Of a stretch of DNA of 64,000 nucleotides, positions 15,707 to 35,646 are shown piece after piece (positions within the stretch are counted from its first letter, which is position 1; every line of letters starts with the position of its first letter). The notes under the pieces are model-generated. The model had not been told where the DNA came from. It worked only from the letters and a program-made list of their open reading frames with translations, and ran no database searches. The translations under genes were made by a program, and so were the position numbers. The DNA comes from Escherichia phage ECP2301. Where the stretch lies: sequence record OR880646.1; one strand, 5' to 3'.

Positions 15707-15777
15707 TATTTTTCCTTTCAATTCATGGGTTAGTAGATTAATTATACAATAAATATATAAAGCAATAAGGAGGATAT

Positions 15778-15978
15778 ATGGTACAAAAATTAATGGCACT
15801 TGTTAATGCCATAAAAGGTAATAAAAAACGTATAGCTTTTACTATTTCTGCTATGGTAGGAATTTTACTCTGGAATTTTGTTTTATCACCAATTGCTATT
15901 GCTCATGGTGTTAATATTCCAGTAATTACTCTTGATACATTCGTAGATTTAGCATTTGCTTTAGTTGGGTTAATTTAA
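15778..15978 (+). CDS. small hydrophobic protein, 66 aa (plus strand)
   Basis: ATG preceded by strong SD (AAGGAGGATAT); two predicted TM helices; sits in the gp56-gp61 intergenic interval. Confidence 0.4.
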   Translation: MVQKLMALVNAIKGNKKRIAFTISAMVGILLWNFVLSPIAIAHGVNIPVITLDTFVDLAFALVGLI

Positions 15979-20360: not shown

Positions 20361-20705
20361 TTAAAAGAATTTAAATTTTTTCTTTGACCTTTTATTAAAC
20401 GCATCTTGTAGTTGCATTGTAATACATTTTTCTACATGAGGAGCTAACTCAGCTTTTCTTTCTTGGTCAAGAACAGCAAAGTCCATTACGACTTTTCCAT
20501 CAACCCAATCTAATTTTGTCACATACACAATGTGTGTAGAACCGTCTTCTAGTTTAATGACAATCTCTTGGATAACATTTTCCATGGCAGATTTAATTAT
20601 CTTAAGAGATTCATTAAAAAGACGTTCTTTTCTTTCTTCTTCCCCCTCCGAAGAGGGGGATTCATCGATAATTTCTAGATCTAAATCTAAATCATCTTTA
20701 TTCAT
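20361..20705 (-). CDS. 40: hypothetical acidic protein, 114 aa (T4 gene 40 position)
   Basis: Track start is GTG; ATG at 20705 gives a plausible length; assigned by position between uvsX and 41. Confidence 0.45.
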   Translation of the reverse strand: MNKDDLDLDLEIIDESPSSEGEEERKERLFNESLKIIKSAMENVIQEIVIKLEDGSTHIVYVTKLDWVDGKVVMDFAVLDQERKAELAPHVEKCITMQLQDAFNKRSKKKFKFF

Positions 20706-21879
20706 TAAATTCTTCCATATCACTTAACTGATCTAGGTCAGTTTCTAAATCAGCTGCTGATTTACTTTTACTTTCTGGAGATTTAAATTTTTCAACCTTT
20801 GAGTTAATCAATTCATCAACTTCAGCTTCAACAATTTCATTACTATCAATAGCACCTAGCTGATAAGCGCGTTTAATAGCATCTCGGAATGGTTGATGTT
20901 TAAATAAAGGACCCCAGAATGTAGTGCAGTTGGTATCTTTTGCACGCCAAGATTTTTCTTCGCGAATCATCTCGCCGGTTTCTTCGTCAAGAAATTCACG
21001 AGCATACCAGCCATTTTTAGGTTTTACCACAAATCCTAATTCTAGAGCCATATCTAACAATCCAGAATAAGGATCGATGCCACCGTCAAATTTAACATCA
21101 ATAAAGAATTTACTTTTTTCTTTAACGGTACGAGATTTTTCTACATTTAGAACAAATTGATACCCCTGAAGATCAGAACCATCTTTAATCTGGCGCTTAC
21201 CGATAATGAATACAGTATCAGCCGAATACATTACGCCTGTACCACCTGTCATCACGGTTTTACTAAACATTTCAATTGTTTCAATTGTATGGTTAACCGC
21301 AACACACGGAATGTTTTTAATACTAAAATAAGGAGTAACAATACGGAATAATGACTTCAGTGATTTAGCACGAGTCATATCTGCCACAGATTTTTCATTC
21401 AAGGCATCTTCCGTTTCTTTCTTAGAAGCCATATTACCAATTGAGTCGATGAATACAATAACTTTTTCACCACGCTCAATAGCTTCAAGCTGATTCACCA
21501 TATCAATTTTCAGCTGTTCAACTGACTGGATTGGTGTATGAATTACTCGTTCCGGGTCAACTCCCATGGATCGCAAATAAGCTGGAGTAATACCAAATTC
21601 GCTATCATAAAATAGACATACCGCGTCAGGATATTTGTTCAAATACGCCGCAACCATAGTCAAAGACATATTTGATTTAAAGTGTTTAGAAGGACCTGCA
21701 AAAATGGTTAAACCAGACTGCATACCACCATCAATCGCACCAGAAATAGCAATATTAAGCATTGGGATTTTTGTACGGATTACATCCTTTTCATTAAAGA
21801 ATTTAGATGTAGTCAGTTCAGCAGTCATTTTAGAAGTGGAAGCTTTAATCAAACGGGATTTTAAATCTGCAATAGACAT
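20698..21879 (-). CDS. uvsX: UvsX recombinase (RecA-like), 393 aa
   Basis: Near-identical to T4 UvsX as I recall it along its length; Walker A GPSKHFKS. Confidence 0.95.
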   Translation of the reverse strand: MSIADLKSRLIKASTSKMTAELTTSKFFNEKDVIRTKIPMLNIAISGAIDGGMQSGLTIFAGPSKHFKSNMSLTMVAAYLNKYPDAVCLFYDSEFGITPAYLRSMGVDPERVIHTPIQSVEQLKIDMVNQLEAIERGEKVIVFIDSIGNMASKKETEDALNEKSVADMTRAKSLKSLFRIVTPYFSIKNIPCVAVNHTIETIEMFSKTVMTGGTGVMYSADTVFIIGKRQIKDGSDLQGYQFVLNVEKSRTVKEKSKFFIDVKFDGGIDPYSGLLDMALELGFVVKPKNGWYAREFLDEETGEMIREEKSWRAKDTNCTTFWGPLFKHQPFRDAIKRAYQLGAIDSNEIVEAEVDELINSKVEKFKSPESKSKSAADLETDLDQLSDMEEFNE

Positions 21880-21956
21880 TCATTTTTTCCATAGGCATCA
21901 TTATATTTTCCTCACTGGTTAAAGATAGAGTAATTATAACACAATAAATTTAGGCA

Positions 21957-22799
21957 TTAATCAACTGCTATTGGATGAATAGCATTAAACTTATGAAACG
22001 CTTCTGATTTTTCTTTGCGCGAAACACACATGCGAAGAACCTTTAATGGCTCGTCTTCTTCACCCAACGATTTTCTCTTTTCAATATTCGATGTTTTCCA
22101 GCGAGCTTGCTCTGGAAACTCTCTATTGATTTGCTCAAGAGCTCTATTATGTTTTGAATTACTACGAATTGAACTACATCCGCCAGGAGCTTGCGCTTTT
22201 CCGGATACAACCAGATATTTGAACAAGGCCAAATGCGGATAACCTTGATTAATTAAATTGAGAAATGCATACATATCTTCGCATAAATCAATTTTTCCAT
22301 ACCCAATTTGTTCTGTTGTAAGTTTTCCGAGGTCATACCAGGTATTCGTGAATCCATATGAATTTTCACGATAATTACCCCAAGATGAAGTAATTTTAAA
22401 AATTGGTAGACGAGCATGACCATGATAATACCCGCAATCCATGGCATCTTCAACGTATTGAATCAATTCATAGAACTGTTCACGAGTTAACTGATTAATT
22501 TTATCTACGCAGCGACGATCATCTTTCTTTCGCATTGAACTCATACGAATAGTAGTATCATCGTCAATCATCCAAATTCGTTGACCTGCATACATATCAG
22601 TAATTGCTTTGCGAGTGCCAGCAATTCCATTAACATCATCAGGAATAGTTATAATTTTGGCTCTAGACCCGTAAGCGTCATAATAAGCTTTTTCTTCGTG
22701 TTCACGTACTACAATATGAGGTTCATAATCAGTCGGAAACATATCAAGGGCAGAAACTGCCCCTACGCGTTGATAGCTTGGAATTACGAATTGAATCAT
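21957..22799 (-). CDS. putative HMC-DNA glucosyltransferase with DxD motif at the beta-gt locus, 280 aa
   Basis: IWMIDDDT (DxD); sits between uvsX and gene 42 where T4 has beta-gt (351 aa by my recollection); ATG overlaps gene 42 stop (ATGA). Confidence 0.5.
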   Translation of the reverse strand: MIQFVIPSYQRVGAVSALDMFPTDYEPHIVVREHEEKAYYDAYGSRAKIITIPDDVNGIAGTRKAITDMYAGQRIWMIDDDTTIRMSSMRKKDDRRCVDKINQLTREQFYELIQYVEDAMDCGYYHGHARLPIFKITSSWGNYRENSYGFTNTWYDLGKLTTEQIGYGKIDLCEDMYAFLNLINQGYPHLALFKYLVVSGKAQAPGGCSSIRSNSKHNRALEQINREFPEQARWKTSNIEKRKSLGEEDEPLKVLRMCVSRKEKSEAFHKFNAIHPIAVD

Positions 22800-23536
22800 T
22801 TCCACTCACCTTTATAGTCTTTTTTCACAATATGAGTTTCGCCAGTATTCCACCAATGATCAACCAAGTAAAAATGACGAGAATATACATGAAGACTTCC
22901 AACATTCCATATAATAGAACCTGCTTTATACTGACGAGTTGAATCGCCTGCATTCAAATCAGATACTAATTTATCTAATACGTATTTTTGCCATGCATAA
23001 TCATTACGGAATCCGAAGACCACGTCATTTGAACGCATGCTTACTACTGCATTGACTTTCTTATCACGAATCAGGTACTGTACTGTATTCGTACACATGA
23101 AATCTGACATACCATCTTTATTGTAGTCAAACTGCATGGATGGACGAGTATAAATCATGATACCGCGTCGAGAATCAGGATTTTGACCAAGTTCAGCTAA
23201 ACACATATCATACTGGGCATAGTTATCTTCTGACCAGATGGCCCAACCATAATTCGAGTTAATTTCGCCCTTAGAAGATGCTACCTGCTGCCAAATCTTT
23301 GGTGTTTCACCTGGAATATCTTTAACAAACAAACTTTTAGATTTATACCATTCAAGTTCACGCTGAATGTATTCATCATTAAGAGCGCCAAAAATAAAAG
23401 GTTCATCTGCTACAAATGATGCGCCAATAATTTCAATAGTTTTAACACCAGTTTTATCAACTACGAAATCTTTTTCTTTTAATGCAAGCCCCAAATGAAG
23501 ACGGATTTCTTCAACTGTCATAGAGTCACTAATCAT
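22796..23536 (-). CDS. 42: dCMP hydroxymethylase, 246 aa
   Basis: Thymidylate-synthase-like fold; 246 aa as T4 gp42. Confidence 0.9.
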   Translation of the reverse strand: MISDSMTVEEIRLHLGLALKEKDFVVDKTGVKTIEIIGASFVADEPFIFGALNDEYIQRELEWYKSKSLFVKDIPGETPKIWQQVASSKGEINSNYGWAIWSEDNYAQYDMCLAELGQNPDSRRGIMIYTRPSMQFDYNKDGMSDFMCTNTVQYLIRDKKVNAVVSMRSNDVVFGFRNDYAWQKYVLDKLVSDLNAGDSTRQYKAGSIIWNVGSLHVYSRHFYLVDHWWNTGETHIVKKDYKGEWK

Positions 23537-23689
23537 TTAAACCTCAATTGATACATTCATATTTAACTTGTAACAGTAATAAACCCCAACCTATAATAAG
23601 TGTCGGAATCATACAAGGAACCGTTACGCTATAGTATATACTTATTATAATCATCAAGATTAAAAGCAATACTGTTAAAATTTTGCTTT

Positions 23690-23941
23690 TCATTCCTTCT
23701 CTCTGATGATAATTACTTGATTTTGCTGTGCAGATTTTTTAGTTTCGCCCGCAATTGACCAAATAAAGGTAATAAACCAACCAATAATTGACCAATTAAA
23801 CAGTAAAGATGTGAAAAAGATTCCTACTGTCGATTTTGACCCACGCATCAAGGCGATGAACCATGGAAGCATGTATATAATAATAGCCAACACGCCTGAA
23901 ACTAAAACCATAAAAATTGAACCTGCTACTAAAGTTTCCAT
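23690..23941 (-). CDS. imm: superinfection immunity membrane protein, 83 aa
   Basis: 83-aa two-TM protein at the T4 imm position. Confidence 0.75.
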   Translation of the reverse strand: METLVAGSIFMVLVSGVLAIIIYMLPWFIALMRGSKSTVGIFFTSLLFNWSIIGWFITFIWSIAGETKKSAQQNQVIIIREKE

Positions 23942-23948
23942 CTTTTCC

Positions 23949-24329
23949 TCACTTAGTCAAATTTTTTACGCATGAATTATAAGAATTCACTACATACTCC
24001 ATCGGAGCATTTTTACCAGTACGCCATTGGTAATTATTAGCCCAATTTGCCCAAAGTTCAGCGCAGTAGTTTTCAATTTTTTCTTCGCGTGTAATTACAT
24101 CCGAATTACGATATGCTTGAGCAGATTCATCTGGACGAATAGCTTCGTCAAAATTCGCCTGCATTTGTTCTACTGTCTGTTTTGGAGCTTCTTTATAACA
24201 CTTGACGTTAGGATTATAAAATTTGCTTGAACAGTTTACAATTTTTCCTACATCAGATTGATTTACTACCGGTCCTTGAGCTACACAACCAGTAAGACCC
24301 AACGCAATAACCAAAATAGCGATTTTCAT
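23949..24329 (-). CDS. putative lipoprotein, 126 aa
   Basis: Signal peptide with lipobox (LGLTGC). Confidence 0.5.
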   Translation of the reverse strand: MKIAILVIALGLTGCVAQGPVVNQSDVGKIVNCSSKFYNPNVKCYKEAPKQTVEQMQANFDEAIRPDESAQAYRNSDVITREEKIENYCAELWANWANNYQWRTGKNAPMEYVVNSYNSCVKNLTK

Positions 24330-34443: not shown

Positions 34444-35646
34444 TTATTTTGTAATAATGTCAAACTGTTCTTTAAAGCAGAAGCTTGAATCTTGATGCTG
34501 ATACAAAAATTCATAAGCTTTTTCGCGTTCACGGTCATAAAGAGTTCGGTCAGATGACAGTTCTTTAATACGCTCAAATGTTGATTCCATGTCATTTTCA
34601 TCAAACCAAACGATACCGCTATCATGAGAAATTAACGGAGTATTATCAACGCGGAATTTTAAATTTTCGCCAGTAGATTTCCAAAATACTGGAATTGTTC
34701 CGCATGCACCAAGCTCGAGATGAGTATATTCTAAAGAACGTTGTAGATATTTTTTGTCCAACTTACTCAGCTGATAACCAAATCCAGATTTACTCATGCG
34801 TTCAAGCATTTCGCTATTTACATAACGGTCAAGAATTTGCGTTGGCAAATTAGGAGCAATTTTAATTTGGTCTACTTGATGAAGACGATAATACTCGTAT
34901 GGAATTCCTTTTTCTTTAATAGGAATGAACGCTGGAGAACGTTCCAGACCTTCCATAATAGTACTTAGTCCTGCAGGTTTAAGATGTTTTTCGTGAAAAT
35001 CAAACATCTGATAAAAACCTTTCCATGTAGTCGTACGACCAATCCAACGGTTGACATTCATGTTAATTTCAGAAACATCTTTCCAGTAGTTTGATCGAAC
35101 CTTCGCAATATCCATAGGAGGCTGAAAGTTGTATACAGTCGGTGCTTCTTCAATATCATCAAACAGAGAAACCGTTTCTGGATACCATTCTTTCATCAAA
35201 ACTTTATTAAAATCGCCATTATCAGAATGACTAAAAATAACATCAGCTCGACGAACAGTTTCTTCTAATCCCAAATTTCGGCGTAAAGAAAGAGAAGAAT
35301 GGTCATGTTGATAAACTACAACACGAACTGAAGGTTTAATGTTATCAATAATTTTTTTATAGTTATTAATAGTGTCTTCTTCGACTGAAGTAGCAGGAAC
35401 TGAATTGATAATTAGAATATCACAATCATTTACCAGCTTAAGTGTTTTATCGTATTCTTTTGCCAATAAAACCGGAATTGAAAATGATTTATAATCATGC
35501 GCGCAATTACGAGTAAATGATTTATCTTTAGCATAAACCAAAATTACTTCATGACCATTTTTAATAAACCAATCACGCTGCTCGAGAGAAAATTTAGTTA
35601 CACCGCAACCTTCAAGACCTCGAGCCATAAAAATGCATACTTTCAT
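34444..35646 (-). CDS. a-gt: DNA alpha-glucosyltransferase, 400 aa
   Basis: 400 aa; position between gene 47 and gene 55 region. Confidence 0.88.
   Translation of the reverse strand: MKVCIFMARGLEGCGVTKFSLEQRDWFIKNGHEVILVYAKDKSFTRNCAHDYKSFSIPVLLAKEYDKTLKLVNDCDILIINSVPATSVEEDTINNYKKIIDNIKPSVRVVVYQHDHSSLSLRRNLGLEETVRRADVIFSHSDNGDFNKVLMKEWYPETVSLFDDIEEAPTVYNFQPPMDIAKVRSNYWKDVSEINMNVNRWIGRTTTWKGFYQMFDFHEKHLKPAGLSTIMEGLERSPAFIPIKEKGIPYEYYRLHQVDQIKIAPNLPTQILDRYVNSEMLERMSKSGFGYQLSKLDKKYLQRSLEYTHLELGACGTIPVFWKSTGENLKFRVDNTPLISHDSGIVWFDENDMESTFERIKELSSDRTLYDREREKAYEFLYQHQDSSFCFKEQFDIITK

Follow-up and report, generated by a model that had tools for sequence, protein, structure and literature searches.

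The interval between uvsX and gene 42 is where phage T4 carries the gene for its DNA beta-glucosyltransferase (beta-gt), and the locus in Escherichia phage ECP2301 raises the question of which glucosyltransferase occupies that position here and what sugar pattern it would place on the hmC of the phage DNA. A stretch of 64,000 nucleotides from sequence record OR880646.1, referred to below as the window, was analysed. With a probability of roughly 0.93, the open reading frame at 21957..22799 (minus strand) encodes the DNA beta-glucosyl-HMC-alpha-glucosyltransferase of the T2/T6 type, which would make gentiobiosyl-hmC in the pathway proposed below. The analysis shows what the gene is, its fold, how well its motifs are conserved, which partner genes accompany it and that the window lacks a beta-gt; activity and DNA composition are taken from the literature on orthologues.

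The reading frame (ggt, also ba-gt or TAGT) is intact and specifies 280 amino acids, running from an ATG at 22799-22797 to a TAA stop codon at 21959-21957. The initial annotation had placed a 280-residue protein between uvsX and gene 42, and both the frame and the flanking genes were confirmed; the 351-residue beta-gt that it gave for T4 is indeed found at the syntenic position, where T4 also carries segA. A GTG at 22805, given as the start in a mechanically produced list of open reading frames, would yield a protein of 282 amino acids. This start was dropped in favour of the ATG, which is the annotated start in all annotated relatives; the annotated coding sequences of T2, Shfl2, ESh26, Geo and QOTSP each begin with ATG and measure 843 nt. 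A Shine-Dalgarno-like run, GGTGAG, ends 6 nt upstream of the transferase ATG. As described earlier, the two genes overlap, here in an ATGA at 22796..22799 (minus strand) in which the TGA of gene 42 lies at 22798-22796, and this arrangement may couple translation of gene 42 and the transferase. Scans of 21700-24000 returned sigma-70 promoters (13 against 10.3 in shuffled sequences) and terminators (1 against 0.9) at the level of the shuffles. A GC-rich 9-bp hairpin (GGGGCAG ttt CTGCCC; 22745-22765, minus strand) lies within transferase codons 12-18 and is invariant in the window, T2 and T6, the chance expectation for the region being 0.9 sites.

Over its 280 amino acids the encoded protein shares 99% identity with the enzyme of T2 and 98% with that of T6, and it matches PHROG 842 with an E-value of 5.6e-89. 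The score of residues 3-207 against Pfam family PF20691 (TET-associated glycosyltransferase, TAGT) is 38.8 bits, the curated gathering cut-off being 27.5 bits, and the match spans positions 2-205 of the 205-position model; the same domain was found in nearly all of 51 database relatives. These results bear out the suggestion, made from the sequence alone, that this could be the T2/T6 beta-glucosyl-HMC-alpha-glucosyltransferase (EC 2.4.1.28). Searching with the gene by megablast identified 478 phage records carrying it at 90% identity or more, all of T4-like phages of Escherichia, Shigella, Yersinia, Salmonella and Citrobacter and many of them annotated as beta-glucosyl-HMC-alpha-glucosyltransferase. 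The locus has the same layout in T2, T6, Shfl2, Geo and QOTSP; in T2 and T6 the enzyme (280 amino acids in T2) shares with that of the window its slot between uvsX and gene 42, the ATGA overlap and the partner genes. For the T2/T6 enzyme (ggt, ba-gt, g-gt), PMC11946311 cites Winkler and Rueger (1993). The transferase has the IPSYxR, TR and DDD motifs common to the TAGT family but, as a member of the Tequatrovirus subgroup, extends beyond the PF20691 model by a C-terminal segment of about 70 residues (208-280). More distant members of the family lie in different genomic surroundings, and their acceptors may differ as well (PMC13216743).

A sequence search of the PDB with the transferase returned a best E-value of 0.76, a spurious match, and the fold was therefore assigned from a predicted structure. 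An AlphaFold model built from the single sequence reached a pLDDT of just 39.5 and was replaced by one based on an alignment of 48 sequences, gathered in two rounds and reaching down to about 15% identity, for which the pLDDT was 93 and the pTM 0.90. In this model the fold is GT-A rather than GT-B, which answers a question raised by the initial annotation. Structure comparison of the model returned WrtF (14.0), B4GALNT1 (13.8), GnT-I (13.6), RmlT (13.3), cellulose synthase (13.0), TarP (12.8) and TarS (12.3). Cellular inverting enzymes of the GT2-type GT-A fold (TarP, TarS, cellulose and hyaluronan synthases, GnT-I) share 8-16% identity with the transferase. Unlike them, the phage protein has neither membrane nor processivity domains, and it would act on a sugar carried on double-stranded DNA. 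Work published in 2026 arrived at the same GT-A result by modelling the T6 protein with AF3 and placed the TAGTs beside family GT2, whereas the alpha-GT and beta-GT of T4 both have the GT-B fold (PMC13216743).

Across the 48 aligned sequences R11, R63 and D79-D81 are invariant and I6, P7, R32, Y39, T62 and R212 nearly so; the window transferase keeps all of the family-invariant residues. The DxD motif IWMIDDDT pointed out previously was located at residues 75-82, its only match in the window, and the codons of D79-D80-D81 occupy 22557..22565 (minus strand). In the model, the DDD follows directly on strand beta4 (74-78), the canonical location of a DxD motif. R11, encoded by CGC at 22767..22769 (minus strand), belongs to the IPSYxR motif after strand beta1, and E174-D175 stand at the N-terminus of helix 174-184. 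Roles for these residues were assigned from the general picture of inverting GT-A enzymes. On this basis, D79-D81 would hold the metal and the diphosphate of the UDP-sugar, the nucleotide sugar would be bound by the IPSYxR (R11) and TR (R63) motifs, and catalysis would probably rely on D175 or E174 as the base. The modelled enzyme most probably depends on a metal and works by inversion, an inverting mechanism being in keeping with a beta-linked product formed from UDP-alpha-glucose.

The genes for the remainder of the proposed pathway are present in the window. Gene 42 (22796..23536, minus strand) was assigned as dCMP hydroxymethylase from its match to PF00303 of the thymidylate-synthase family (58 bits), its synteny with T4 and the annotation of relatives; uvsX (20698..21879, minus strand), the downstream neighbour of the transferase gene, matches PF21134 and PF00154. 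The alpha-glucosyltransferase gene, a-gt (34444..35646, minus strand), codes for 400 amino acids that match PF11440 at 776 bits. Its product is 99% identical to those of T2 and QOTSP and 90-91% identical to those of T4, T6 and Geo. The a-gt is thus of the T2/QOTSP type, and both glucosyltransferase genes assort independently among these phages in a mosaic fashion. No beta-gt was found within the 64-kb window, the best tblastn match with T4 beta-gt having an E-value of 2.4; a beta-gt elsewhere in the genome would be unusual, because alpha-GT and beta-GT occur together in just 6 of 753 genomes (PMC13216743). The pair formed by alpha-gt and a transferase for the second glucose is the usual state in Tequatrovirus, and T4 is the exception.

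In the proposed pathway, the product of gene 42 would make hm-dCMP, hmC would be incorporated into DNA, and alpha-gt would add an alpha-linked glucose to the hmC in DNA. The transferase would then add a second glucose from UDP-glucose, beta-1,6-linked to the first, to give alpha-gentiobiosyl-hmC. Deletion of the orthologous gene in T6, which abolishes gentiobiosyl-hmC, has been described in two studies (PMC11078745, PMC13160076). T6 lacking ba-gt contained alpha-glucosyl-hmC only, and its sensitivity to the Brig1 glycosylase rose (PMC11078745); in T6 lacking g-gt the DNA became a substrate of the BapA glucosidase, unlike that of the wild type (PMC13160076). In ten Tequatrovirus phages carrying both alpha-GT and TAGT, LC-MS detected 5hmdC, alpha-glucosyl-mdC and alpha-gentiobiosyl-mdC, and no beta-glucosyl-mdC (PMC13390438). 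By analogy, the DNA of the present phage should lack beta-monoglucosyl-hmC and contain unmodified hmC mixed with alpha-glucosyl-hmC and gentiobiosyl-hmC.

The proportions of that mixture are a separate matter. The DNA of T2 is reported to contain about 70% alpha-glucosyl and about 5% gentiobiosyl residues, as against about 3% and about 72% in T6 (PMC11078745, PMC13160076). The presence of ggt alone does not fix the gentiobiosyl fraction, since T2 reaches only this 5% with a transferase and an a-gt that are each 99% identical to those of the window. Phages from Durham form two groups, with ratios of hmC to glucosyl to gentiobiosyl residues of approximately 1:2:2 and 1:0:2 (PMC13390438). Geo, whose TAGT and a-gt are 98% and 90% identical to those of the window, belongs to the 1:2:2 group; for T6 (AP018814) the corresponding identities are 98% and 91%. 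QOTSP, with 99% identity for either enzyme, belongs to the group in which about two-thirds of the residues are gentiobiosylated and there is little alpha-glucosyl-hmC (PMC13390438). We predict with moderate confidence that the present phage has T6/QOTSP-like DNA dominated by gentiobiosyl-hmC, because R11 and all other invariant residues are kept and each of the two transferases shares 99% identity with its QOTSP counterpart.

The same enzyme could instead be weakly active in vivo and leave mostly alpha-monoglucosyl-hmC with a few percent of gentiobiosyl-hmC, as in T2. The near-identity of the two a-gt products and the composition of T2 DNA are consistent with such an outcome, as is the small number of residues, four in all, by which the transferase differs from that of T2 (R11H, K92R, I101V and P251S, from window to T2). 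One of the four, however, is the family-invariant R11: the three T2 records (AP018813, L002:4283-5125; MH751506, L012:2286-3128; LC348380, L013:2295-3137) all have His there, as opposed to Arg in T6, Geo, QOTSP, Shfl2 and the window. QOTSP, moreover, combines an a-gt of the T2 type with an R11 transferase and is rich in gentiobiosyl-hmC by LC-MS. A T2-like composition is in our judgement unlikely, though far from negligible. In a scan of IMG/VR contigs, a small sample, Arg was found at residue 11 in five matches and His in none. Between the window gene and that of T2, 38 codons are changed synonymously and 4 nonsynonymously, which indicates purifying selection on the transferase gene.

The two T6 records carry apparent lesions of their own, and the T2 and T6 reference alleles look impaired beside that of the window. 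From window to T6 AP018814 (L003:4135-4974) the changes are Y40N, D55G, loss of D79, K92R, I101V and R106H, the missing residue, one of the three Asp of the invariant DDD, having been lost through a 3-nt deletion in frame. In T6 MH550421 (L005:4138-4980) the DDD is kept, and a CAG-to-TAG change creates an amber at codon 10, the annotated coding sequence beginning at M20; apart from the deletion and the amber the two copies are identical. The window allele agrees with the family consensus at both R11 and the DDD, from which T2 departs at R11 and T6 AP018814 at the DDD. These comparisons allow a tentative reading, against which the odds lie somewhat: the window ggt would be an undamaged copy of a gene that is damaged in the classical laboratory phages, and R11H would underlie the approximately 5% of gentiobiosyl residues in T2 as opposed to about 70% in T6-like phages, a difference that has long lacked an explanation. 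If the reading of R11H is true, the present phage would be T6-like despite its T2-like alpha-gt, and the two independent lesions in T6 stocks would suggest that passage in the laboratory has more than once relaxed selection on the gene or acted against it.

A further alternative is that the protein functionally replaces the beta-gt of T4 and attaches a single beta-glucose directly to bare hmC. It occupies the slot of T4 beta-gt (PF09198) between uvsX and gene 42, and the two enzymes share the donor UDP-glucose (from the literature), the beta anomeric outcome and a general role in DNA hypermodification against host nucleases. Some TAGT homologues are found in phages with neither alpha-GT nor beta-GT (PMC13216743), so that the family may include enzymes acting on the base itself. 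The sequences are nevertheless unrelated: the best BLASTP match between T4 beta-gt and the transferase had an E-value of 3.4 over 8 residues, and the PF09198 profile gave no match to the protein at E-values up to 1. Homology to T4 beta-gt, tried as a candidate, was ruled out by BLASTP together with tblastn, and the lack of T4 similarity beside the 98-99% identity to the T2/T6 enzymes matches the distinction drawn in the initial annotation. The proteins also differ in length and fold (351 amino acids and GT-B for T4 beta-gt, PMC13216743; 280 amino acids and GT-A in the model here). The acceptor of T4 beta-gt is bare hmC, whereas that of the T2/T6-type transferase is alpha-glucosyl-hmC, which the high identity to T2 and T6 leads one to expect here. 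Phages with the gene pair, furthermore, show no beta-glucosyl-hmdC and leave about one third of their hmC unglucosylated (PMC13390438), and replacement of beta-gt is very improbable. Slighter still is the chance that the gene is decaying or has lost its activity: the apparent lesions of laboratory reference phages (T2 R11H, the T6 amber and the T6 loss of Asp) suggest that it may be dispensable in culture, but the window frame is intact with every invariant residue kept, and changes from T2 are predominantly synonymous.

For a transferase of the T2/T6 type, the gene, its position, fold, partners and product have all been described before, and papers published in 2024-2026 cover the genetics, the fold and the nucleosides. 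Which host defences a T-even phage can evade depends on the sugars that its hmC carries; such defences include Brig1-type glycosylases, restriction of the GmrSD/BrxU type, the BapA/Brig3 pair and CRISPR. Possession of the alpha-gt and TAGT pair predicts DNA rich in gentiobiosyl-hmC, without beta-glucosyl-hmC and with about a quarter to a third of bare hmC. This prediction is useful for considerations of host range and phage therapy; it adds nothing new to the biology itself, because the pair is the norm in Tequatrovirus. The point on which the comparison of alleles touches is what sets the differing gentiobiosyl levels of T2 and T6-like phages.

Several features of the neighbourhood were observed in addition. 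The stop codon of the transferase gene is separated from the start of uvsX by 77 nt (21880-21956). The homing endonuclease gene segA, which in T4 lies between beta-gt and uvsX, is absent from the window, as it is from T2 and T6. Directly after the transferase stop (21933-21956, minus strand) there is a TGCCTAA followed after 11 nt by TATAAT, a putative middle promoter of the T4 type (MotA box and -10 element) in a position from which it may drive uvsX. The window also has no dam between gene 56 (dCTPase) and gene 61 (primase) at 15707-15974, where T4 and Geo carry one; the gap contains only a 66-amino acid open reading frame on the plus strand (15778-15978). Durham phages without dam have the highest gentiobiosyl fraction, its absence probably being a marker of lineage and not a cause. 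Between imm and gene 42, in a gap without annotation in the reference records, an open reading frame for a strongly hydrophobic product of 49 amino acids (23544-23693, minus strand) begins with an ATG that overlaps the imm stop codon, and is intact with 96% nucleotide conservation in T4, T2 and T6.
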